IMG/VR virus record: IMGVR_UViG_3300009157_000004
DNA length: 20,000 bases
From: an uncultured virus (IMG/VR IMGVR_UViG_3300009157_000004)
Lineage: Duplodnaviria > Heunggongvirae > Uroviricota > Caudoviricetes
Direction: 5' to 3' (one strand)
Shown: piece by piece, positions 300 through 15,948 of the stretch
Layout of the letters: each line of letters opens with the position of its first letter
Position numbering within the stretch: the first letter of the stretch is position 1
Program-made: the position numbers and the translations under genes
Notes under the pieces: generated by a model
The model's database searches: none
Seen by the model: the letters and a program-made list of their open reading frames with translations, nothing else
What the model was told of the DNA's origin: nothing

Positions 300-2873
300 C
301 TAATCGTCCTCCCCTTTCATTAATCCCCACACCGTCCCTTCCTTAAAATCCACCGGCGTTGGGATTCCAATATTGGTGGTTGTTTCCATAACGCTTTTTG
401 TCACCAGATTGCAAAAAACAACGTGTTGTTCTGGTATCTCATTAAGAAGTGCGTCGTGAATCTGGATCAAAGAGCGTATGTCAATCCCTTCGCTGCGTAA
501 CTGTCTATAAATTGGTGTCAGTTTGCCCATTGCTAACTTAATAATCCCTTGCGCGGAGGCCTGGATAGGCTGGTTCTGTGCCTGCCTGAGTGCGTCCATT
601 ACTACCCACTTATTCGGGCTGTATACGCCCGGTGTCAGTTTAATCCTCCCAAACATATCTCTGACATAACCGTGTCTCCTGGCATAAGCATGGATCTCCG
701 CAATATAATCCCGCACTCTGCTGAACCGGTCGAACCAGGCCTTGATCAGATCCTCGCACGCGGTTAGGGTCCATGTACTCGGATCGGCACCATCTTTGAT
801 CAGGGTCTCCATCAGTCCCTGTGCTTCCGTACCGTAGGGAATTCCGAAGTTAACCCTCTTACAAGGCAACCGGTGCTTATACTTATCAATCTGAGATTCA
901 GGTAATCCGAACACTTCACAGGCTGTCATTGTGTGAATATCCTTGCCATCCGTGAACGTCTTAATCATCGAAGGTTCATTCGCCATTTTTGCTAGAAGTC
1001 TAAGTTCTATCTGCGAATAGTCTCCCTCAACTAGCACATACCCCTCTTCCGCAACAAATCCCTCCCGCATCTTCCGGCCCTCTTCATCCTGGTTAGGCAC
1101 TGCCATCAGGTTAGGCTCTGCGGTCGATAGCCGGCCCGTGTCTGCGCGCGTGACCTTAATCTTAGGGTGGATACGCCCATCTGCCGCGATTCGATTGGGC
1201 ATAGGCCCTGAGTACGTGTTAATCAGTTTATCATACCCTCGCCAATCCCTAATCACCTCAATAACCGGATGCGTCCCCTGCAACATCGCGAGTACCTTAT
1301 CATCTGCCTGCTCCAGCCCTGTCTTCGTAAACTTTACTGCTTTCAGGCCCAGGTCCTCGAATAACAACTTGCGCACCTGTTGATGACTCCCTAATTGCAC
1401 ATCCCGGTCTGTCAACTCGTACACTTTCTTCTGTAACAATTCTTTCTTAGTATTGTAATATTCTGTTAGAGATCGGAACTTGTCCGGGTCTGCCTTGATC
1501 CCATGCTCCATCATGCCCATAACCATAGGGAGTATACTAACATCCATCCAGAATACGTCTTCAAGCTCTAATTCGTGTATTCTGGGCCACAGGTACTCGT
1601 AGACTGCCAATGTCATCTCAGCGTCTTGGCAGGCGTACTTAAGCGCGTCCTCGAAGGGGATATCACACAGTTCGCCATCAGGCATCAGCCCGAACTTAGC
1701 CTCCGCGATCCCTCTGCCCTCGTTTGGGTCTATGTTCAGCCAGCGTTCGCGTAATTCGATATCCGGACTCTTTGAATAATCGCTTAAGATCCTGGTCGCT
1801 TTTTTATTAATCGGCCAGGGGTTCTTGACCTTCCAGACACCTTTGGCTTGATAGGGTATCGCTTCGGGCTTAGGCCAGGATTCAGAGGCGATAAGACATA
1901 AGTAATCCAGTGCTTTCTGCTGCCGGGCTGGGCGGATTGTCTCCTCGTAACTGAACATCCGACGGCCAGTAACCCGGTACGCCAAGGCCTTGAGGCCCTG
2001 CGGCTCGTCCTGGAGCAGATAGGCGAGAATCATAGTATCCACTATCTTATCCGGGATCAGCCCCATATCCTTCAGCACAGGTAGATCGTAGAGTGCATTA
2101 TGCAACAGGACCGTAATGTTGTTCGTACGGATATAGTTGTCCAACTGGGCAATAAGCGGGTTATCTGCCAATAAGAAATATGCCTTGCCGTGTTCCCAGC
2201 ACGCGGTCAGGTTCCAGCCCTTCCCCCTGGCCCATTCAGTATCTATTGCAATCACTTTCGGCGGCTGTTCAGGAAACGTGAACGTGTGTGCTTCGTATAC
2301 AGGCGTCGAAGTATCCCAGTAAATCGCTGGTTTAGGCTTAACCTGGCCATACATAATCTTGACTACCTGCTTATAATCGTTCTGGCATAGGGCCATTATC
2401 TCAGGGCGGTGTAATCCTGCCGCTGGGTGATAACAGGGGATAATCGTCCGGCCATTGATCTTGTAGCCGATACCGTGGCAGAGTTCCATGTCCAGGTCCG
2501 GGATAAACTTATGTGTGGCCAAGGCACCCAGGCAGACGATGATCGAGGGATCTACTAGTCGGATCTCCTCGTTCAGCCAGTATGAGCATGCTTTCACGCA
2601 TTCCTCATCCGGGTCCTCATCATCGGGCACCCTGCACTTAACTATATTCGTGGTATAGGTATCTTTGCGGTTCAGCCCGTTGCGCCGTAGATATGCTGTG
2701 TGCTCTTCCCCAGCTTTAGCTTTCTCGACAAAGGGCCTGCCTGTGCTGTCTTCCCACTTCCCAGGGCCTTCGCCAATAAACATAATCCCGGCGTCTTCGG
2801 GGCCTTCACCCCATACTATCTTACGCCGGGATTTGGATAATTTACAAAGATTGCATGTGTTTGCGAGTTTCAT
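300..2873 (-). CDS. polA: Phage family-A DNA polymerase with N-terminal uracil-DNA glycosylase (family 4-like) domain and 3'-5' exonuclease
   Basis: UDG: CNLC, GEGPG, NIVKCR, YHPAA. Exonuclease: ExoI DTE, ExoII HNALYD, ExoIII YACQD. Polymerase: TGRLS, motif A DYSQIELR, motif B KRVNFGIPYG, motif C QIHDA. Confidence 0.95.
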   Translation of the reverse strand: MKLANTCNLCKLSKSRRKIVWGEGPEDAGIMFIGEGPGKWEDSTGRPFVEKAKAGEEHTAYLRRNGLNRKDTYTTNIVKCRVPDDEDPDEECVKACSYWLNEEIRLVDPSIIVCLGALATHKFIPDLDMELCHGIGYKINGRTIIPCYHPAAGLHRPEIMALCQNDYKQVVKIMYGQVKPKPAIYWDTSTPVYEAHTFTFPEQPPKVIAIDTEWARGKGWNLTACWEHGKAYFLLADNPLIAQLDNYIRTNNITVLLHNALYDLPVLKDMGLIPDKIVDTMILAYLLQDEPQGLKALAYRVTGRRMFSYEETIRPARQQKALDYLCLIASESWPKPEAIPYQAKGVWKVKNPWPINKKATRILSDYSKSPDIELRERWLNIDPNEGRGIAEAKFGLMPDGELCDIPFEDALKYACQDAEMTLAVYEYLWPRIHELELEDVFWMDVSILPMVMGMMEHGIKADPDKFRSLTEYYNTKKELLQKKVYELTDRDVQLGSHQQVRKLLFEDLGLKAVKFTKTGLEQADDKVLAMLQGTHPVIEVIRDWRGYDKLINTYSGPMPNRIAADGRIHPKIKVTRADTGRLSTAEPNLMAVPNQDEEGRKMREGFVAEEGYVLVEGDYSQIELRLLAKMANEPSMIKTFTDGKDIHTMTACEVFGLPESQIDKYKHRLPCKRVNFGIPYGTEAQGLMETLIKDGADPSTWTLTACEDLIKAWFDRFSRVRDYIAEIHAYARRHGYVRDMFGRIKLTPGVYSPNKWVVMDALRQAQNQPIQASAQGIIKLAMGKLTPIYRQLRSEGIDIRSLIQIHDALLNEIPEQHVVFCNLVTKSVMETTTNIGIPTPVDFKEGTVWGLMKGEDD

Positions 2874-3265
2874 GCACTTGCCTTTGGTTTACTCGGCCGA
2901 GGACTCCAAGGCAATTCGGCAATCGCAAGCGCATACTTCTGGGCAAGTTTGGGGCTTTTCACGTCCCACCACTTGTCGAATAAAGTCGTGCCACAGGTAC
3001 AGGGTTCATCAAATTCTTTAGATTTCCCTCCCCAGTCAATAGGGCAACACTTACAGATGTCACGATGTCTAAATTCAGACCCATAACGGGTTGCGGCTTC
3101 AACACACGCATAACAGTAGGGATAGTCTATGATTGCGAATCCCAATGTCATGCGAGCCCTCTCCTTCGCGCTGTGATTTCGGTCCACCCATCTTATGAGT
3201 TTATATCTGGCGATCTTTTTCCAGACCGCAATATGTCGTCTATGGTTTTCTCGATTACTGTTCAT
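2870..3265 (-). CDS. Cys-rich hypothetical phage protein (131 aa)
   Basis: Start moved from 3346 to the ATG at 3265 (AGGAGG RBS); CYAC and CKCCPIDW motifs; ATGA overlap with the polymerase start. Confidence 0.75.
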   Translation of the reverse strand: MNSNRENHRRHIAVWKKIARYKLIRWVDRNHSAKERARMTLGFAIIDYPYCYACVEAATRYGSEFRHRDICKCCPIDWGGKSKEFDEPCTCGTTLFDKWWDVKSPKLAQKYALAIAELPWSPRPSKPKASA

Positions 3266-3275
3266 TATGATCCTC

Positions 3276-3461
3276 CTATGATTCCGTATTACCTTTCTCG
3301 AACCCTGTCTGATAAGAATCCTGAAGACATTTCTCGCAGGGTTCAACGATTAACCTTCTTGATTTGCCGCATCTCTCTTCTGTCCTGCTCTGGTTGCATA
3401 ATCCTGCACCACAAGAACAGTATACCTCGAACTCAATCTCTTCTCCGCTAAATGATGGCAT
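3276..3461 (-). CDS. Small putative zinc-binding hypothetical protein
   Basis: GGAGG RBS; CSCG...C and CEKC motifs; fits operon packing. Confidence 0.7.
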   Translation of the reverse strand: MPSFSGEEIEFEVYCSCGAGLCNQSRTEERCGKSRRLIVEPCEKCLQDSYQTGFEKGNTES

Positions 3462-3463
3462 AT

Positions 3464-3553
3464 TTATCCTCCCAATGCTAATTTTAAGATGTATATCATT
3501 ACCGCAGCGTACATGAACGCTACCCAGTATCTATATAGCCATTTCGGGTCCAT
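3464..3553 (-). CDS. Putative 29-aa single-pass membrane peptide (MDPKWLYRYWVAFMYAAVMIYILKLALGG)
   Basis: Fills the gap between neighbouring genes; AGGGGG RBS; ~20-aa hydrophobic core. Below the ORF-track cutoff. Confidence 0.5.
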   Translation of the reverse strand: MDPKWLYRYWVAFMYAAVMIYILKLALGG

Positions 3554-4148
3554 GTACGCCCCCTGCCTGATTGAGTATTTCGCTATACTCCTCTACGGCC
3601 TCTGCCCTTTTCTTCTCTCTGTGCCGCTTCTCAATCTCTCTTCTGATCTGCCTCTGGTGTTCCGGATCTGAGCGCATCCCGTCCCAGTCAAACTCGGAGA
3701 TATACTTAAGCAGGACCTCAAACTCGCACCAAAGGATCTGAATCAAGTTACCATACAAAGGGAGCTTTGACTCGGTTTGTCTGTTAACGCACCCGGAGCA
3801 GGTCATAAGCGCAGCGAGCTTTGAGTCGCTCAGATCTCCCAGGTCAGTCGTGTTCTTATATCTGAGATAGTGATTCCAGGCTTCTAGGGCATACTCCTGG
3901 CGTCTTTGGCAAGCGCGGCAGGATATCCGGGCATTAAGTGAAGTACAGACAACCAGCTCCGGGTAATCAACCGAGAAGTCTGCGTCCTGTGGGAGGACGT
4001 GGTCTTCTATTGAATTGAAAGGCGTTTCGGTATGCGGGTTATCAAAGCTCTGTCGGAGCCATTCCATCTTATCCGAATGATATAGGGCAGGCTTGAATTC
4101 CTCTGACGGTGTGGTATAGGCGTTTATTACTCCGAAATGTCCGGGCAT
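3531..4148 (-). CDS. Hypothetical protein (205 aa; CxxC pair, charged helical C-terminus)
   Basis: GGAGGTG RBS; CRAC and CSGC motifs; long ORF on the operon strand. Confidence 0.75.
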   Translation of the reverse strand: MPGHFGVINAYTTPSEEFKPALYHSDKMEWLRQSFDNPHTETPFNSIEDHVLPQDADFSVDYPELVVCTSLNARISCRACQRRQEYALEAWNHYLRYKNTTDLGDLSDSKLAALMTCSGCVNRQTESKLPLYGNLIQILWCEFEVLLKYISEFDWDGMRSDPEHQRQIRREIEKRHREKKRAEAVEEYSEILNQAGGVHGPEMAI

Positions 4149-4420
4149 GTGCTCACCTCCGTAGCCGTATTCTTCTGGGGCAGGTTAGGCTTCTTCTGGT
4201 CCATACCCAATTGTCTTCTGAGGCGTCGGTCCAGGCTGGTGAACTTCTTCATTATCCGGGCCTGTGCAAGTGACGCGTCCGGGTTCGCCTCATACTCGCG
4301 CTCTAACCTGGCCATCTTCTTGATCGCCCGGCGCTGGTGGCGGTTCAATCCGTCTTCCGGGGCCTGGTCGGGCATTTCGTCCACTTGTACCCCAGGGTGA
4401 TTTGTTCCGTTGTCGTCCAT
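4127..4420 (-). CDS. Hypothetical protein (97 aa)
   Basis: AGGAGGAG RBS; TAATG coupling to the upstream gene; NRHQRR segment. Confidence 0.7.
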   Translation of the reverse strand: MDDNGTNHPGVQVDEMPDQAPEDGLNRHQRRAIKKMARLEREYEANPDASLAQARIMKKFTSLDRRLRRQLGMDQKKPNLPQKNTATEVSTCPDISE

Positions 4421-4596
4421 TATCTTATCTCCTCCTTTTGCTCTTCGGGGAATCGGCGTATATCCTTCTCATGGACAAGTAGCCAGGCCCCCTTAGTTGT
4501 TAAGATCTCGCGCGTATAAGGCTTGTCGCCCTTACGCACCTCTAAAAAGTATCGCTGTTTCCCTTTGTCCCAGTATAATCCCGGTTTAGTTTTCAT
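4420..4596 (-). CDS. Small basic hypothetical protein (MKTKPGLYWDKGKQRYFLEVR...), possibly nucleic-acid binding
   Basis: Start moved to the ATG at 4596 (ATGA overlap with the upstream stop, GAGGG RBS). Confidence 0.65.
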   Translation of the reverse strand: MKTKPGLYWDKGKQRYFLEVRKGDKPYTREILTTKGAWLLVHEKDIRRFPEEQKEEIR

Positions 4597-4880
4597 TGCA
4601 CCCTCACCGGGAATTCCATAACCATTACGCCCTGAGATTCCAGCCATGCTGGGCAGTTGTCGCGCTTCTCACACGTCGCACACCCGAATACCTCCATCTG
4701 TTCGACCATAGACAATGACTGGAACGTGGCGACAATAAACAGGTTAATGTCAAGCAGCTCCTTGAACATGCCGTATACCTCTTCGGGCTTGTTCATGTCG
4801 AGCTGGCCGGATTCCTTCTTGACTGCTATCCCGGCCTCAATAAGCAGGTCCTTGAATTCCTCTGCGCGTGATTTAGCCAT
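4593..4880 (-). CDS. Hypothetical protein with CxxC-x5-C motif
   Basis: AGGAGG RBS; overlaps both neighbours; CATCEKRDNCP. Confidence 0.75.
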   Translation of the reverse strand: MAKSRAEEFKDLLIEAGIAVKKESGQLDMNKPEEVYGMFKELLDINLFIVATFQSLSMVEQMEVFGCATCEKRDNCPAWLESQGVMVMEFPVRVQ

Positions 4881-5064
4881 TCGTTTCGCCCTCCTGTCTG
4901 TATTCGGTTACCGCTTTGTTAAACTTGTCCGCGTCAATATGCAGCGTGACCTCATTATCGTGGCCGCCGATAAGAATTGATAATGGTTCATCGTGGCCAA
5001 ATTGCCGGATTGAGAAGATGTCGCTCTTCTCTATGTCAAATATGCGTCTGGTTGATCGTTTCAT
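4873..5064 (-). CDS. Hypothetical protein (63 aa)
   Basis: GGAGGGGAG RBS; TAATG translational coupling. Confidence 0.7.
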   Translation of the reverse strand: MKRSTRRIFDIEKSDIFSIRQFGHDEPLSILIGGHDNEVTLHIDADKFNKAVTEYRQEGETNG

Positions 5065-5246
5065 TACTCCCCTCCCTCCCTGTCATGCACGGTTTTTACC
5101 AATACCCGGCCCATGTACTCTGCCTGGACATTGACTATCTCGTCAATATCCGTATCGGTCCAGGTGGCGTGTACGTCAACAATCGCCTTGTCAGCCGGGT
5201 TGTGAACGTTCTCAAAATGAAGCTCTTTAAGCGTTGATTTTACCAT
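5064..5246 (-). CDS. Hypothetical protein (60 aa)
   Basis: AGGAG RBS; coupled to the next gene. Confidence 0.7.
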   Translation of the reverse strand: MVKSTLKELHFENVHNPADKAIVDVHATWTDTDIDEIVNVQAEYMGRVLVKTVHDREGGE

Positions 5247-5277
5247 ATTAAATATACTCCTGTCAAATAGTTAATGT

Positions 5278-5439
5278 TTAAATCCGTACCCCCGATTGCC
5301 GCGCCAGGCTATACAGCGACTCGTCGTTCATTACCCACAATTCGCGCTCCTGGTTGTTGATCTTGCAATTAGGGCATACGGCGATAATTACCGCGTCAAT
5401 CTCTTCTCTGTATTCCTTGACGAATTGTTTGAGCGTCAT
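5278..5439 (-). CDS. Hypothetical phage protein (MTLKQFVKEYREEID...WVMNDESLY)
   Basis: GGAGGT RBS before the ATG at 5439; an alternative in-frame start at 5472 also has an RBS. Confidence 0.7.
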   Translation of the reverse strand: MTLKQFVKEYREEIDAVIIAVCPNCKINNQERELWVMNDESLYSLARQSGVRI

Positions 5440-5504
5440 GCCTACCTCCGTTATACCCAGGGAGACGTTCATAGTCTCCCCGGCCTATGTTAGACTGTTA
5501 AAAT

Positions 5505-5672
5505 CTACCTATGGCAATATCCGGCTTCAATAAGAGCCGATGCTGTCCGGCCATAGCACCCTTGCAAACTCCAGGCCATACCATTATCAATTAATTCCTG
5601 AAACAGTTCGATGGTTCCGTCGTCGTCGAGTTCGCCCTCTTCCCAGGCTATCATTTTGTCAAGCTGGTCCAT
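5505..5672 (-). CDS. Small phage protein of unknown function (55 aa; FQELIDNGMAWSLQGCYGRTA motif)
   Basis: AAGGAGG RBS; not in the ORF track. The QxLIDxGxAWxLQGxYGRxA pattern is one I recognise from recurring phage hypothetical proteins. Confidence 0.8.
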   Translation of the reverse strand: MDQLDKMIAWEEGELDDDGTIELFQELIDNGMAWSLQGCYGRTASALIEAGYCHR

Positions 5673-5701
5673 TATTTAGTCCTCCTTTTTAGATGTTAAT
5701 T

Positions 5702-5758
5702 TAAAACCTTCGAGCCTGCCTACAACTTACCAGGTCATAAGCAGGATTGAGGGTTTTA
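5702..5758 (-). other. Intergenic ~57-nt RNA hairpin, candidate RNase III processing or mRNA stability element
   Basis: TAAAACC...GGTTTTA outer stem and CCUGCUUAU/GUAGGCAGG inner stem; mismatches become G:U pairs on the minus (mRNA) strand. Confidence 0.55.
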
Positions 5759-5777
5759 GCCCCCTAAGCGCATGAGA

Positions 5778-5948
5778 TCACCTGCCTTTCTTATCAGACG
5801 TTTGTACCCTCCCATATAATATAATCTTTAATAAGTACTCTGCTTTTCTGCATATTCTGAATGCGCTCCGCCGTGATATACCCATCCGAATAAGCATACA
5901 TGCTAAATTAAGCGGATTGAAATAATGTTGTAACATGGAGCGCGTCAT
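5778..5948 (-). CDS. Small basic hypothetical protein (MTRSMLQHYFNPLNLACMLIRMG...)
   Basis: Fills a gap in the operon; AAGGTG RBS; alternative ATG at 5936. Not in the ORF track. Confidence 0.6.
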   Translation of the reverse strand: MTRSMLQHYFNPLNLACMLIRMGISRRSAFRICRKAEYLLKIILYGRVQTSDKKGR

Positions 5949-5951
5949 AGC

Positions 5952-6164
5952 CTACACCTTCGCGGCCGCTGCCCAGTCCATAATAAATCGATAAAGCCCC
6001 AGGCCTGTCTTGTTACCGCTTGGCAGGTCCCAGCGGTCCCGATATCCCGGAGCACGCGTGAGTCCCAGGTTCTCTGCCAATATGTTGCCCCTAATCTCCT
6101 GAATCTGTTCCGGCGTCTTCCCGGCTTCCTCATTCAATCTCTTTAATGTCTCTAAATCGTGCAT
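5952..6164 (-). CDS. Hypothetical protein (70 aa)
   Basis: GGAGG RBS; tight operon packing. Confidence 0.7.
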   Translation of the reverse strand: MHDLETLKRLNEEAGKTPEQIQEIRGNILAENLGLTRAPGYRDRWDLPSGNKTGLGLYRFIMDWAAAAKV

Positions 6165-6167
6165 AGT

Positions 6168-6389
6168 CTATTCCTCCGTGGTGAATTCTGCTATAAGTTG
6201 ACTTGATACGCACCAATTACTGCCCCCGGTTCTGTATACCCTGCATACGTCTTTCCCATCTATATGCTCCATTACTACCCTCGCGCCGATATTCCAGCCG
6301 CGGATATGCCCGGATATGCCTGAACTTTTGGTTCCCATACGCGTCGCCTCTCCTCTGTTGCCCTGTATTGCTGCATAGAATTGTGCCAT
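6168..6389 (-). CDS. Phage hypothetical protein (MAQFYAAIQGNRGEATRMG...)
   Basis: GGGAGG RBS; Gly-rich, beta-strand-like pattern; tight operon packing. Confidence 0.8.
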   Translation of the reverse strand: MAQFYAAIQGNRGEATRMGTKSSGISGHIRGWNIGARVVMEHIDGKDVCRVYRTGGSNWCVSSQLIAEFTTEE

Positions 6390-6393
6390 TGTT

Positions 6394-7098
6394 TTAATCC
6401 TCCCTTGTTTTAGTGTATACTATAAAATGAATATCAAATTGCCCCTTGCCTGTCAAGACAAATATGAAGTCAAGCTCCGGGTTCCTGTCCTGTATAGCCT
6501 CTGCAATCTTCTCAGGCTTATTATCTTGGCCTGGATAGAAGCCGCTTTCATAGCGTTCGGTGCCCCTGGTCCAGCCGTTAATTTCCAGTATAGCCTGAAA
6601 ATCATCGGGCAGCGCTTTACGGTTGTCGTTTTTGAATTCGTCAATAATCTCCGGGAGACTGTTAGTATAACAATCCCGGCATATTATCGCGCAGCCATCA
6701 TTAATACGTACATAAGAAGGCAGCCATGAGTATGAATCCGGGCTTGTTCGGACCGCGCAGCCGCAGTCGTCGCAGGCTGTCCATTCGTCGCTCCATAATA
6801 CTTCAATATCCAGCTTGTTTTCAACAAAAGACTGCAATTTATCGGAGACTTTATTCCAATTAGCAGCTATGCCCGGCCTATCAGTACATCCCGGTTCGCT
6901 TATGCCCGGATAATCCATCGGATATGCGCCGTGCTCTTCCAGGTGCTTTATAATGTTCTCTAATACGATATCAGGATTGAATTCAGTCACGCGTGCTTCA
7001 ATCGCATAGCAGTCGCGGCATAGGTCCTGGCCGTGATATGGCTTTAAGAATTCAGGCCCGATTGCTGTTTGTCCACACTTACACGTATTTGTCTGCAT
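6394..7098 (-). CDS. Phage hypothetical protein with several zinc-binding Cys pairs (234 aa)
   Basis: GGAGG RBS before the ATG at 7098; CKCG, CRDC (twice), CDDCG; WSDEW, PDSYSW, YESG, GQFD segments. Confidence 0.8.
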   Translation of the reverse strand: MQTNTCKCGQTAIGPEFLKPYHGQDLCRDCYAIEARVTEFNPDIVLENIIKHLEEHGAYPMDYPGISEPGCTDRPGIAANWNKVSDKLQSFVENKLDIEVLWSDEWTACDDCGCAVRTSPDSYSWLPSYVRINDGCAIICRDCYTNSLPEIIDEFKNDNRKALPDDFQAILEINGWTRGTERYESGFYPGQDNKPEKIAEAIQDRNPELDFIFVLTGKGQFDIHFIVYTKTRED

Positions 7099-7121
7099 AA
7101 TGTCCTCCATTTAGTTTGTTA

Positions 7122-7186
7122 TTAATCGTGCTCTTTACTCCCCCTTCCAGGTCCTCGACTGGCTGAGGGATAAAAAGCAGGGTTAA
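7122..7186 (-). other. Intergenic ~65-nt RNA hairpin, candidate RNase III processing element
   Basis: UUAA..UGCUUUUUA.UCCC / GGGA.UAAAGAGCA..UUAA stem plus CCAGUC/GAC-CUGG apex; G:U pairing favours the minus strand. Confidence 0.55.
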
Positions 7187-7326
7187 TCGTCAGTAAGCTC
7201 CCATTCAGGTTTAATATCCCATTCTGAGAACGGGCATTTATCAGGCGTGCCTTTTGCAATAGTCGCATCTACCTGACATTGATTCTCGCATTGTCTGCAT
7301 ACCCAGCGCTGGTAATCTTTCTGCAT
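7183..7326 (-). CDS. Small putative zinc-binding protein (47 aa; MQKDYQRWVCRQCENQC...KCPF)
   Basis: AAGGGAG RBS; CxxCxxxC...CP. Not in the ORF track. Confidence 0.7.
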   Translation of the reverse strand: MQKDYQRWVCRQCENQCQVDATIAKGTPDKCPFSEWDIKPEWELTDD

Positions 7327-7371: not shown

Positions 7372-7755
7372 TTAATCAATAAAAATCACTTCGCCCACTA
7401 ATAAGTCATATATCGCTTTCTGCCCGTTCGCGCGCCCTGCCTTAAAAGCCGCGTTCAGGTCCCCAAATAGACTGGCCACTTCGATGTAGCTGGTATCGGT
7501 GTCCGTGTCATACCAGGTGCCTAGCGCCGGGATAGAGAAGTAGTATTTGGGTACAGGCGTTTTGTCCGTTAACCAGTTATGCTGGACCTCTATCAAGTCG
7601 TCGTCGCTGATTATCGCGCCTTTCACTTCTTTTGTCAAGCGCGAATTAATAACGACGCTGAAAAATGCCACGCCTGCCAAATTGTGGCGACTGTCCATTG
7701 TAAACGTGCTGCCGCCTGTCTCGTTATGTACCTTTACTTGGTCCTGTAATGACAT
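7372..7755 (-). CDS. First gene of the early operon; hypothetical protein with possible remote similarity to phage SAM lyases
   Basis: AAGGGGA RBS before the ATG at 7755; GGST...LGTWYD...YIEV...A..GR.NGQKAIYDL pattern. The gene is well supported, the function is speculative. Confidence 0.75.
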   Translation of the reverse strand: MSLQDQVKVHNETGGSTFTMDSRHNLAGVAFFSVVINSRLTKEVKGAIISDDDLIEVQHNWLTDKTPVPKYYFSIPALGTWYDTDTDTSYIEVASLFGDLNAAFKAGRANGQKAIYDLLVGEVIFID

Positions 7756-7797
7756 GTTATCCCCTTTCAAATAAGTATTAATCTCTGCCTATTATAT

Positions 7798-7813
7798 AGC
7801 ATACTCCGTGCCA
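7798..7813 (-). promoter_or_regulatory. Sigma-54 (RpoN) -24/-12 promoter of the leftward operon
   Basis: Minus strand reads TGGCACGGAGTATGCT against consensus TGGCACG-N4-TTGCW, with exact GG-N10-GC spacing; intergenic; predicted +1 near 7787, ~32 nt before the ATG at 7755. Confidence 0.75.
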
Positions 7814-7818
7814 AACTG

Positions 7819-7831
7819 TAACCTATTGAAA
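7819..7831 (-). promoter_or_regulatory. IHF-like binding site
   Basis: Minus strand TTTCAATAGGTTA against WATCAANNNNTTR (one mismatch); at about -32 to -44 from the predicted sigma-54 start. Confidence 0.5.
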
Positions 7832-7856
7832 TCATTGAACTCCCGTTTTCCAGACA

Positions 7857-7978
7857 TTGCATAATTCAATGGACAAATCAGTAACCATTCCTATTTAGCC
7901 CAATCTATTAGTCTATTCAGCTAGTTATCGCCTTGCAAAGTTCAATGCCCGAATACCCCTATTTCTTGCAATCTGCAA
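7857..7978. promoter_or_regulatory. Three TTGCA-N3-T(G/T)CAA palindromic boxes, candidate upstream activator sites
   Basis: TTGCATAATTCAA (7857-7869), TTGCAAAGTTCAA (7933-7945), TTGCAATCTGCAA (7966-7978). Confidence 0.45.
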
Positions 7979-8029
7979 TCTAAAGACGGCTGGTCCATGC
8001 CGCGACAAGCTGTCTATTACTCTCATCCC

Positions 8030-8080
8030 TGGACACGTTTGGACATCTTTGGACATCTATTCTCACCTGTGGACACCTGC
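8030..8080 (+). repeat. Helically phased TGGACA direct repeats
   Basis: GGACA at 8031, 8041, 8051 and 8071 (10-bp register). Confidence 0.65.
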
Positions 8081-8152: not shown

Positions 8153-8800
8153 ATGTTAGAAGAGAAAAAAGTGCAATTTTTGCACTTATACGTTCGCAAT
8201 CTAAGTGTCAGAGCGTCCGCCCTTGCGGTAAATGTCGCGGAGTCTACAGCATGGGAATGGATGAAACATCCTGATATTGTTAAGTTATTAGAAGATTATG
8301 CGGCAGTGCAGAATTCGCGGACAACTATTAACGTAGACAAGCTGGTGAAAGAGATTGCTATCCTGGCAAGTAGTGATGTCATGGATTATTTCGACTCACA
8401 TAAGGGGATATTGACGTTTAAAGACCTCAAGAGTCTGCCGCCGGAGATGACGCGTTGTATTAAATCGGTTGAAGAAACCGTGTCGCCCCAAGGCCAGGTC
8501 AAGCTTAAGATCCAGGTCCATGACAAGCTGGAGGCCATTGAACGGCTAACTAAGGTATTCGGGCTGGAGATGGAACGTGTGTTACTCGTCGATTCGAACA
8601 ACCAGGCGCTAGGCGTGGTAGGTACCGGCCAGCAGCAGGCGGCCCTCCCACCTGTCAATTCAATAGAAGACTGGGAAGCGCAGGTGCAGAGCGCGCGCAG
8701 GTCCCGGGATTCATTGCCCGGATTAAGCGCCCCTTTATCTCCGCCACGCACCCCGGATTCAGCGCCCACCAGCGCCCAGGTAATCGACATTGACCCCTAA
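8153..8800 (+). CDS. terS: Terminase small subunit
   Basis: N-terminal HTH-like region, 'VKEIAILASSDVMDYF' and 'HDKLEAIERLTKVFGL' segments typical of terminase small subunits; AGGAG RBS; first gene of the packaging arm. Confidence 0.8.
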   Translation: MLEEKKVQFLHLYVRNLSVRASALAVNVAESTAWEWMKHPDIVKLLEDYAAVQNSRTTINVDKLVKEIAILASSDVMDYFDSHKGILTFKDLKSLPPEMTRCIKSVEETVSPQGQVKLKIQVHDKLEAIERLTKVFGLEMERVLLVDSNNQALGVVGTGQQQAALPPVNSIEDWEAQVQSARRSRDSLPGLSAPLSPPRTPDSAPTSAQVIDIDP

Positions 8801-8949: not shown

Positions 8950-9123
8950 ATGCCGAACGATAAAGACATAAAAGTGACACGTACAGATTGGCCTACAAAC
9001 ATGGATGAGTTTATTAAAAAGTTATGGGGGAAGAAGCAGGAGCTGGAGATGCAGGGGAACGAGGATTATTTCAGAAAGATGCAGATGGGGGACTGGGAGA
9101 TAAAGAGGCCAGGGGAGAAATAG
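8950..9123 (+). CDS. Hypothetical protein (57 aa; MPNDKDIKVTRTDWPTNMDEF...)
   Basis: AAAGGT RBS; purine-rich, coding-like composition. Not in the ORF track. Confidence 0.5.
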   Translation: MPNDKDIKVTRTDWPTNMDEFIKKLWGKKQELEMQGNEDYFRKMQMGDWEIKRPGEK

Positions 9124-9231
9124 GGATCTCAGCTGAAATTTTAAACACTTTTTCACATAGGGGTGTATTCGCAATTAGAAATAAGGCCCTGTAATTATTT
9201 TTTTATAAAAAGGTATTCAAGGGAGGACGAG

Positions 9232-9339: not shown

Positions 9340-9347
9340 GATATCCT

Positions 9348-9416
9348 GAGACAAGGTGACATGTACGACAAATGACATGTGGGACAAGGCGACAACTAGT
9401 CAACTAGTTAACTAGT
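9348..9416 (+). repeat. GACA array followed by three AACTAGT repeats
   Basis: GACA at 9350, 9358, 9367, 9374, 9383, 9391; then AACTAGT-C-AACTAGT-T-AACTAGT. Confidence 0.75.
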
Positions 9417-9453
9417 AAGGCGGTGGCCGCGAACCGGTTCAGATCAGATTTTT

Positions 9454-9668
9454 TGTACTCTTGTAGTATACGAGAATTAGCCCGGATACAGTTAGCGGCG
9501 GGTATGGAATGACAAAGTGACACGTGTGACACGGAGACAAAGCAACAATAATACATATACTGTATCTGTCATTCTGTCACACAATACTCTTGTACGACAT
9601 GTCATTCTGTCGGTTTGTACCCAAAACTCACTGTATCCGGGTCAAATCTCGTATACTACAAAGATACA
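9454..9668. repeat. ~215-bp imperfect inverted repeat with AT-rich centre; candidate replication origin or structured element
   Basis: Perfect arms 9461-9475/9647-9661 (15 bp) and 9481-9492/9630-9641 (12 bp); inner GACA repeats mirrored by TGTC repeats. Confidence 0.85.
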
Positions 9669-9694
9669 GAATATGGAGGGCCGGATTTAACCAT

Positions 9695-9711
9695 CCTTGC
9701 ATTTTGCAAGG
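9695..9711. promoter_or_regulatory. Palindrome CCTTGCA-TTT-TGCAAGG, operator-like
   Basis: Perfect 7-bp arms, just upstream of the RBS of 9734; same core as the boxes at 7857-7978. Confidence 0.45.
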
Positions 9712-9733
9712 TTTTAGATGGGGAGCTTAATTA

Positions 9734-10129
9734 ATGGCAGAAGCAGGAAGCAAGATCGGATTCCAGATGTTCAAAGACCTATTCGGCAAATACGTCAACA
9801 CTCTGCCGGCGAAGAATCGGGCAGCGATTATGGAAGAGGCGAAAGAGGCCGATGTGATGTCGCCTCTCCTCACGATGGAGAATGTTACCAAGCACTCTAT
9901 CTCGATAATCCTGACGGAGAATGATGATCGTGCGATCCTGGTCCAGAAGCGTATAGACCCAGCAGACAATTCGAGTGTGTACGTGATCGATATCGTGTGT
10001 AGATCGGACCGGACCAAGCTCCAGACGACTGAGGAGATCCGGACGATGCTGATTCTGAGCCCCAGATCGAATGAGTATGAGGAGATAGGACCTGAAGAAA
10101 TATATAGAAAGGTAATAGAGGAGGATTAA
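9734..10129 (+). CDS. Hypothetical protein (131 aa)
   Basis: GGGGAG RBS; on the late-arm strand. Confidence 0.75.
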   Translation: MAEAGSKIGFQMFKDLFGKYVNTLPAKNRAAIMEEAKEADVMSPLLTMENVTKHSISIILTENDDRAILVQKRIDPADNSSVYVIDIVCRSDRTKLQTTEEIRTMLILSPRSNEYEEIGPEEIYRKVIEED

Positions 10130-10400: not shown

Positions 10401-11060
10401 ATGAGAACAATAACGAAAGCTGATATCCAATACGCCGAGGGCATCGCATACCGGACGTGCCCGATTAAGGATTTCGACCACCCTTTGTGGAAAGAGTGCC
10501 TCTCTGCGGCGCGTTATGGCCTCGTTGATGCCGCAAGGAAGTATGACCCGGATCATGCCAAACAGAACTGGAAGGCGTTTATGGCCATACGAGTCCGAGG
10601 GGAAGTCCGTGAGATTATTCGCAAAGAGAGGGTCCAGTGCAGTGTAGGGCTGACTCACCGGAGCCGGAATAACCAGGATCATATAAAGATCTCAGAGTAT
10701 GACACAATCTGGGATATCGCGTCAGATTCACACCAATCTATGAATAAGGAGGCGGTGTATGATAATCAGGAGATTGGGGACGTTATGGATCTTATTGGTA
10801 AGAAGTTTCCTCTCCGTGTGGCATCGGAGTCAGAATCGCCAGAAGATATATTATTGGCAAAAGAGATAACCAAGTTGATTTATGAGGCGATGGACTTCCA
10901 GCTGCCGGCAAAAGAGAGTTATGTACTGGATCTGTTCTATTTCCAGGATATGACGATACCCGAGATAAGGAAGTATAGCAGAGTATCAGAAGATGAGATT
11001 CAGGCACTTATCGAATCGGGGCTCAAACATCTAAGAGAATTGTTGAAAGAGCTCGAATGA
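10401..11060 (+). CDS. Phage-encoded sigma-70-family RNA polymerase sigma factor (FliA/WhiG-like)
   Basis: Region 2: GLVDAARKYDP...AIRVRGEVREIIRK. Region 4: SPED...LPAKESYVLDLFYFQDMTIPEI...GLKHLR. ATGA overlap with terL. Confidence 0.85.
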   Translation: MRTITKADIQYAEGIAYRTCPIKDFDHPLWKECLSAARYGLVDAARKYDPDHAKQNWKAFMAIRVRGEVREIIRKERVQCSVGLTHRSRNNQDHIKISEYDTIWDIASDSHQSMNKEAVYDNQEIGDVMDLIGKKFPLRVASESESPEDILLAKEITKLIYEAMDFQLPAKESYVLDLFYFQDMTIPEIRKYSRVSEDEIQALIESGLKHLRELLKELE

Positions 11061-12850: not shown

Positions 12851-12868
12851 ACCGTGGAGGACAAGACA

Positions 12869-13072
12869 ATGTTAGATTTAGAGAATATCTACAAGTATCA
12901 CGCACCGAAGAACGACCAGCAAGAACGCTATGTCGCTTTGAGAGATAAAGCGAAAGAATTGGCCAGATTGATCGAAGCTAACTGCCCAGAAAGTAGGGAG
13001 CGTTCAATCGCGTTCACAGAAATAGAATCTGCGGTGATGTGGGCAAATGCGTCTATAGCCCGCAACGAATAA
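12869..13072 (+). CDS. Acb2/Tad1-like helical-hairpin protein, putative immune-signal (cyclic nucleotide) sponge
   Basis: YHAP...QQERY..LR..AKELA..I...CPESRERSIAFTEIESAVMWANASIARN resembles the Acb2/Tad1 hairpin pattern; GGAGG RBS before the ATG at 12869. Confidence 0.75.
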   Translation: MLDLENIYKYHAPKNDQQERYVALRDKAKELARLIEANCPESRERSIAFTEIESAVMWANASIARNE

Positions 13073-15783: not shown

Positions 15784-15948
15784 ATGCCTGATACATACCA
15801 AGCCTACGTTGCAAAATGCAATGCAGAGAAGACCAAACCACTCGCTGAGAAAGAGTGGAAGAAGAAGAACACTTTAAGCATCCGGTCTGCGGTTGGTGCG
15901 ATTAAAACCCGACAGCAGCAGATGAAGGAAGTAATGGGGGGTAATTGA
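15784..15948 (+). CDS. Small basic hypothetical protein (54 aa; MPDTYQAYVAKCNAEK...)
   Basis: AGGGGT RBS; fills the portal-scaffold gap. Not in the ORF track. Confidence 0.55.
   Translation: MPDTYQAYVAKCNAEKTKPLAEKEWKKKNTLSIRSAVGAIKTRQQQMKEVMGGN

Follow-up and report, generated by a model that had tools for sequence, protein, structure and literature searches.

A predicted enhancer-dependent sigma-54 promoter before the small-gene block of an uncultured tailed phage, with a host protein as its probable activator

Genome setting of the divergent intergenic region

The analysed window is a 20-kb stretch of a 66.3-kb tailed-phage contig, about 46 kb of which lie beyond it. Two gene arms diverge from a single intergenic region. 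The leftward arm starts at 7755 and comprises about 17 small ORFs followed, at its far end, by a UDG-fused family A DNA polymerase (300–2873, minus strand). Its first gene (7372–7755, minus strand), preceded by a ribosome site at 7761–7766, encodes a 127-aa protein of a viral family without assigned function. The run of small ORFs that follows (2870–7326, minus strand; DUF7417, PHROG 5927 and 35561) has no assigned function either and forms a putative early block; that the leftward arm is early we infer from the layout. The rightward arm comprises the terminase small subunit gene TerS (8153–8800, plus strand), which diverges from the promoter described below, a phage sigma-70-family factor (10401–11060, plus strand) just before TerL (11057), an Acb2/Tad1 gene, and the portal and capsid genes. 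The sigma-70-family factor, 37% identical to its counterpart in the nearest relative, is a candidate for control of the later stage.

The -24/-12 element and the IHF-like site

The sigma-54 -24/-12 consensus, TGGCACG-N4-TTGC, was used for scoring. The element at 7798–7814 (minus strand) departs from it at one of the 11 specified bases and is the top-scoring site of the window; dinucleotide shuffling (200 shuffles) predicts 0.21 sites of this quality per 20-kb window. On the minus strand the GG (7812/7811) and the GC (7800/7799) are separated by exactly 10 nt, the predicted +1 falls at 7787, and the ATG at 7755, with its ribosome site, is 44 nt past the -12 C. The element thus occupies the correct strand of the window's one divergent intergenic region. 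A first-pass annotation had placed a GG-N10-GC element about 45 nt before the first early gene, and both its position and its RpoN consensus score bear this out. An IHF-like site that the same annotation had put at about -32 to -44 is confirmed at 7819–7831 (minus strand; -44 to -32) as a 13-mer with one mismatch to WATCAANNNNTTR, located 5 nt before the -24 element. The window holds 3 IHF-like matches at one mismatch against 2.83 expected, which taken alone is not above chance; for this putative site it is the position that is informative, not the match. No sigma-70 consensus site was found on the minus strand between 7770 and 8150, or upstream of the first leftward gene in the nearest relative.

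Upstream boxes and their resemblance to LuxO enhancers

Three boxes of the form TTGCA-N3-T(G/T)CAA lie within 200 nt of the sigma-54 site, where 0.0014 would be expected: a proximal box at 7857–7869 (-82/-70), a middle box at 7933–7945 (-158/-146) and a distal box at 7966–7978 (-191/-179). They had been reported at about -70, -150 and -185, and are found with inner edges at -70, -146 and -179. Two further boxes were overlooked in the first reading, one intergenic at 9697–9709, 25 nt before the ORF at 9734, and one at 15809–15821, inside an ORF; both are perfect TTGCA-W3-TGCAA copies. Neither has a sigma-54 site nearby, and the former scores also as a terminator-like hairpin. In all, the window contains 5 physical TTGCA-N3-TKCAA boxes (10 strand hits) against 0.28 expected. 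We regard those upstream of the promoter as candidate activator boxes.

The box pattern fits the published LuxO enhancer consensus TTGCAWWWTGCAA (PMC10162802, PMC10328515). The box at 9697 matches this consensus perfectly, and both it and the box at 15809 are identical to LuxO ChIP sites listed in table 1 of one of these sources (PMC10328515). The three promoter copies deviate from it, by one base in the proximal and distal boxes and by two in the middle one, and none of the promoter boxes (0/3) is the perfect TTGCAWWWTGCAA that a LuxO regulon would call for. The change in the proximal box is that of the C-130A variant, for which weakened activation by LuxO and SypG in V. fischeri is described (PMC10162802). 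LuxO itself is therefore unlikely as the activator, because the promoter boxes deviate from its consensus and the proximal one carries a weakening change.

Boxes of this kind are rare beside other viral promoters. They occur upstream of only 2 of 95 unrelated viral sigma-54 sites, and two scans of viral contigs for a box before a sigma-54 site returned 20 and 12 loci, many of them in coding DNA, among which the triple arrangement was present only in the window's own copy and none besides that copy matched the window's proteins. The nearest relative has no boxes, which we count against the preferred reading.

Conservation in related phages

Searches with TerL yielded 175 loci, 112 of them non-redundant including the window's own copy; one record (L021/G001) is wholly inside the window. 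The nearest relative, L023, shares 76% identity in TerL and 39% in TerS and gives no blastn match in the promoter region. All the same, an element on the matching strand stands 33 nt ahead of its first leftward gene, and a perfect, inverted IHF consensus lies 18 nt upstream of that element. Over the 437 kb upstream of TerL in the collected loci, the strict pattern gave 22 leftward sites (11 from L027 and one the window's own) vs 3 rightward, and over the 692 kb downstream of TerL it gave 2. Of the 46 non-redundant loci that extend at least 3 kb upstream, a leftward site is present in 12 and a rightward one in 4, and wrongly spaced versions (9 or 11) number 2–4. With a cut at 52.5% that was picked after the data had been seen, the site is present in 6 of the 7 closest relatives, own copy excluded, vs 5 of the 38 more distant ones. 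In a quick tree, from which 3 of the 46 rows had been dropped for stops or length, 7 of the 12 rows of the window's branch (SH-aLRT 99) carry the site; clustering of the site over the whole tree was not significant (56 of 500 shuffles). In five loci (L031, L184, L119, L076 and L180) the site is followed by the start codon of the leftward arm with its ribosome site, and in L024 an element lies inside the TerS region, antisense.

Thus, conservation across related phages holds for the -24/-12 element, which recurs in six of the seven closest relatives in the same direction although the DNA is not alignable. For the accessory sites the outcome is mixed, the IHF site being kept in L023 (perfect, inverted) and the boxes not. 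We infer that the core promoter is retained within the lineage while the enhancer is exchanged, presumably along with the host. The full sigma-54 enhancer-type layout proposed in the first-pass annotation is supported overall, with position and strand kept in close relatives, and the element is very probably a genuine site for sigma-54 polymerase, a judgement that spans the readings with a host activator, a phage activator and a closed complex.

One relative (L027, complete genome G004) has 16 co-oriented elements and none elsewhere in its 67.7 kb. Fourteen of these are packed into about 500 bp between TerS and TerL (L027:8457-8955; G004:C1:18550-19062) and point back through TerS, while the remaining two stand before the leftward arm. 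The 14-element stretch is not a promoter layout; it is possibly a loading array or a decoy. Compared with cultured phages by blastn, it gave chance-level matches only.

IHF-phased sites across viral contigs

A scan of viral contigs for an IHF consensus combined with the element returned at least 120 hits (98 distinct), vs 61 in all (31 distinct) for the same pattern with one extra base, in a set (L197–L316) of which some contigs may include host DNA. In the 98 distinct sites the gap between IHF consensus and element peaks at 5–7, 13–17 and 25–26 nt, and shows helical phasing with R 0.51 at a period of 10.5, a value that none of 20,000 uniform draws reached; the control gave R 0.13. The 5-nt gap in the window agrees with the phase peak of these sites, 5.5 nt at period 10.5. 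In 87% of the viral sites, A or T occupies the unconstrained position that follows TGC, and 20 of 69 sites fall in ORFs of at least 120 aa, vs 63% of random positions. Upstream TGAC-N7-GTCA palindromes are present at 9 of 87 viral loci, compared with 0 downstream and 0.25 after shuffling, and upstream GTCA-N6-TGAC palindromes at 5 viral loci. Enhancer-dependent promoters served by varied activators would be expected to show such an enrichment. The recurrence of the IHF-phased layout in about 100 unrelated viral contigs might point to a widespread and undescribed form of phage early control. An extended -10 sigma-70 reading of the viral sites was considered and rejected, as it fits only 3 of the 98.

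The same box in Desulfobacterota genomes

We surveyed 401 genomes of Desulfobacterota, the phylum of G030 (Desulfobacterales). In 39 of the 401 (47 places) a sigma-54 site has the box 20–200 nt upstream of it, compared with 6 of 401 for a downstream control that falls mostly in coding DNA. A version of the box with N4 spacing, intended as the null, proved as common as the N3 form (47/401 genomes) and was dropped as a control in favour of the downstream placement; a reversed-pattern control (0 hits) is no fair null for co-occurrence. Since the N4 box is equally common, the N3 box does not single out one activator, and TTGCA half-sites instead mark a broad class of enhancers.

Among 30 fetched host loci, with 62 of their 104 ORFs scanned, an activator gene adjoins the box in 16. 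Ten of the 16 activators are PAS-type, nine of them with the OrpR C-X8-C-X3-C motif, and their genes often stand before NifX-like or DUF5320 genes. The other six are of two-component type; five of their genes precede a sensor kinase and the sixth precedes kdpA, a gene that comes after the site in 4 host loci. Identical copies of the phage boxes are found as well: a 13-mer matching the proximal box follows an OrpR-like activator gene in L401, and 13-mers matching the distal box follow two-component activator genes in L420 and L421.

Seven host loci (L413, L415–L418, L420 and L421) form a set of their own, in which kdpA and neighbouring sensor-kinase genes appear to be transcribed from sigma-54 promoters with TTGCA-N3-TKCAA boxes, and those boxes adjoin a two-component activator. 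In another locus (L402:1-3070), a sigma-54 site and box precede APS reductase genes, and an OrpR-like activator is encoded divergently from them.

Search for an activator and for the host

The statement that the window encodes no enhancer-binding activator is confirmed: 37 ORFs were scanned and none match PF00158. The same profile found nothing in 25 related phage records (11 of them near-complete), with all 14 controls recovered; the records scanned include the complete, site-carrying G004, G005 and G006 and a 24-kb record of the nearest relative. A GAFTGA-like motif is absent from the ORFs of G002, G004, G005 and G006, a Pfam search of 137 ORFs of G002, G004 and G005, mostly non-structural genes, found no activator, and no phage sigma-54 was found in 5 records. 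For the sequence covered, a host activator is the simplest reading of this.

Host identity is less clear. Labels of Desulfobacterota or Deltaproteobacteria attach to 6 of 13 genome-binned TerL relatives, and none of the 13 is a vibrio, but the binning of phage contigs is weak evidence for host. Moreover, the four Desulfobacterota-binned relatives on the TerL tree fall on another branch and are without the site. The first-pass annotation had taken the promoter as a hint of a sigma-54-rich, deltaproteobacterial host, which these placements leave as plausible only. The bin of the in-clade relative L184 contains rpoN and 0 strict sigma-54 sites, and so lends no support to a sigma-54-rich host. Matches of TerL to cultured phages are all below 60% (best 32%), too low for the host to be read from cultured phages, and a homologue search with the sigma-70-family factor together with a protein-representative search returned nothing on the host.

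Extent of control by the promoter

Within the leftward arm, one sigma-70-like site matches at 11 of 12 positions at 7610–7638 (minus strand), inside the first gene, and is by consensus match a possible bypass promoter. A second 11/12 match at 5237–5266 (minus strand) is doubtful because its -10 overlaps a start codon. By our estimate, the two matches are only modestly above chance; such internal sites may bypass the sigma-54 gate.

It had been proposed that a host or phage enhancer-binding protein gates the early and replication arm as a whole. The host-activator part of this proposal fits the 25 related records, in which no activator was found. The gating of replication is not supported: the polymerase gene is 4.9 kb away, behind the two sigma-70-like sites, and the complete relatives G004 and G005 carry it on the other strand. 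The replication genes of G002 are mostly found on the strand opposite, beyond the polymerase. The promoter therefore probably controls the first block of small genes only. A role in prophage induction, also raised earlier, is not supported, because integrases and recombinases are scarce in the relatives: a tyrosine integrase (PF00589) is present in 2 of 19, and in none of the 11 near-complete ones, the phage's own genome being represented by the 20-kb window, and a serine recombinase (PF07508) scores over the cut-off in 0 of 3–5. The gene content of these relatives suggests that the phage is probably non-integrating.

Proposed mechanism and alternatives

Our preferred reading is that the region is an enhancer-dependent sigma-54 promoter which serves the first block of small genes in the leftward arm and is fired by a host activator; from the sequence evidence we give this a probability of roughly 0.6. 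Host sigma-54 RNA polymerase would bind the -24/-12 element as a closed complex, as consensus and conservation suggest, and the three boxes would be bound by a host AAA+ activator of the NtrC family that recognises TTGCA half-sites. Candidates for such an activator would be redox sensors of the OrpR-like PAS/Fe-S kind, or those two-component activators that adjoin sensor kinases or kdp genes in Desulfobacterota. IHF would bend the DNA so that activator and polymerase meet, a mechanism established for such layouts elsewhere, and transcription would start near 7787. The first genes would then be on only while the host signal is on; that they depend on a host signal-sensing protein is probable given that the relatives examined yielded no activator gene. 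Later genes would probably be served by sigma-70-type sites and the phage's own sigma factor.

Another reading draws on the element array of L027/G004, with 14 of its 16 co-oriented elements between TerS and TerL, the antisense element within the TerS region of L024, the two 11/12 sigma-70-like sites in the arm and the box at 9697 that stands alone. In it, the element would hold sigma-54 polymerase mainly as a stable closed complex and act near the packaging region as a loading site, a decoy or a brake; the boxes would be operators of some other regulator, and the arm would be transcribed from sigma-70 sites. We think this rather improbable for the window, where the element is single and lies 44 nt before a start codon with a ribosome site, where the first gene has no other promoter candidate, and where a phased IHF site is accompanied by upstream palindromes of the kind seen beside activator genes. 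A promoter that is real but fired by a phage activator, encoded in the remaining 46 kb or carried in the virion, would amount to a phage cascade with no host checkpoint. An orphan box such as that at 9697 would be in keeping with a phage regulator, 20 kb of the 66.3 kb are covered, and a bEBP-like phage protein lacking the GAFTGA loop, of a type that could evade PF00158, is described (10.64898/2026.10.06.757011). This alternative is nonetheless unlikely, given the 0/25 result with PF00158 and the lack of a GAFTGA-like motif in the ORFs of G002, G004, G005 and G006; it would also be hard for a phage product to fire the very first promoter.

Two other explanations appear very improbable. In one, the activator is LuxO, the host belongs to the Vibrionaceae, and the early genes follow quorum sensing, being on at low cell density. 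The identity of the boxes at 9697 and 15809 to LuxO ChIP sites (PMC10328515) invites this idea, against which stand the one or two changed bases in each promoter box, the proximal change that weakens LuxO activation, the lack of vibrios among the 13 genome-binned relatives and the use of the same box in Desulfobacterota. The other is that an A+T-rich control region resembles a promoter by chance, or holds a vestige of one. Taken by itself the IHF match is indeed no better than chance, and each window is expected to hold 0.21 such elements, but chance would hardly produce conservation specific to position and strand in unalignable DNA, or three boxes in 200 nt against 0.0014 expected, and the extended -10 reading fits just 3 of the 98 viral sites.

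A wider picture can be drawn, to be held only tentatively and, as a whole, more doubtful than the promoter reading itself. In it, lytic phages of anaerobes would make the start of infection conditional on a redox- or potassium-linked host activator, the genome waiting until that activator is on; the enhancer would be swapped with the host, the element arrays of some members would load or trap sigma-54 polymerase, and the IHF-phased layout would be widespread.

Relation to known systems

A close parallel to the layout is the orp system of D. vulgaris, in which OrpR, sigma-54 and IHF act at promoters with a -24/-12 element, an IHF site near -40 and palindromic activator sites 70–190 nt upstream (PMC3897727, PMC8359166); IHF is placed at -42/-43 and the activator sites at -88 and -131 in one description (PMC3897727). 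The nine host activators beside the same box share the C-X8-C-X3-C PAS motif of OrpR (PMC8359166). The orp promoters are chromosomal and have the activator gene beside their target, whereas the present one is phage-borne and the search for an activator gene came up empty; furthermore, the OrpR site as published, GGGCGYRTTTTGCGCCC, has only its core in common with the phage box. A second likeness is to the LuxO/SypG enhancers of Vibrionaceae qrr genes, 13-bp TTGCA-N3-TGCAA sequences present in several copies upstream of a sigma-54 promoter (PMC10162802, PMC10328515). Unlike those, the phage promoter copies are off by one or two bases, nothing points to a vibrio host, and the target is a phage gene block rather than a small RNA.

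In the literature searched, which covered few subscription papers, we found no description of a phage promoter with a -24/-12 element, an IHF site and an enhancer. The only phage promoter labelled sigma-54 that we found there is P015 of Pseudomonas phage YuA, called 'sigma54-like', and the accessible text of its two sources gives no IHF site, enhancer or activator for it (10.1101/2023.10.13.562163, PMC10914365). The 50 nt listed for P015 contain no GG-N10-GC and instead read TTGACC-17-TACAAT, which is sigma-70-like (PMC10914365). Other reports describe a T4-like phage protein that resembles activators without GAFTGA (10.64898/2026.10.06.757011), a weakly predicted sigma-54-like gene in a Pectobacterium phage (PMC7693777), and the resistance of rpoN and IHF mutants to two Salmonella phages, explained via RpoS and glutamine (PMC8744999). 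Sigma-54 enhancer promoters and the gating of phage genes by the host are each known already; the present proposal combines them.

For host gating, the nearest case involves CtrA, a response regulator that acts at sigma-70-type promoters. CtrA-controlled promoters of Alphaproteobacteria phages have been discussed as 'lytic deferment' (PMC9437464), and there, too, sites of a host regulator are clustered in a phage intergenic region and tie phage genes to the state of the host. For those phages CtrA binding is demonstrated (PMC9437464), whereas the promoter in the window is a prediction from sequence. Since sigma-54 polymerase opens no promoter without an ATP-driven activator (PMC8359166), the gate proposed here would be tighter than that of CtrA. 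If the preferred reading is right, a phage without an activator of its own hands the go signal to a host sensor, which would be a tighter form of CtrA-type gating by host state and a route by which lysis in slow-growing anaerobes could be delayed. For uncultured phages, host and signal might then be predicted with the help of the enhancer sequence.

Other features of the window and its relatives

An Rfam search of the window returned no match. Just upstream of TerS, at 8030–8075, are four TGGACA repeats, three of them spaced 10 nt, which are candidate terminase or regulator sites. A long imperfect inverted repeat with GACA/TGTC-rich units spans 9340–9730 (arms 9448–9525 and 9597–9674; single-strand fold z -6.7) and is a candidate origin or packaging signal; the nearest relative has a similar repeat-rich stretch after TerS, at 9050–9210. 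The Acb2/Tad1 gene (12854–13072), between TerL and portal, encodes a hairpin-domain protein of an anti-defence signal sponge family, and its homologue in L024 is located before TerL. Relative to the window and G002, the strand of the UDG-polymerase gene with respect to the leftward arm is switched in G004 and G005. The G004 copy of this gene contains an intein with an HNH domain, and G005 carries a purA-like gene of the adenylosuccinate synthetase family.
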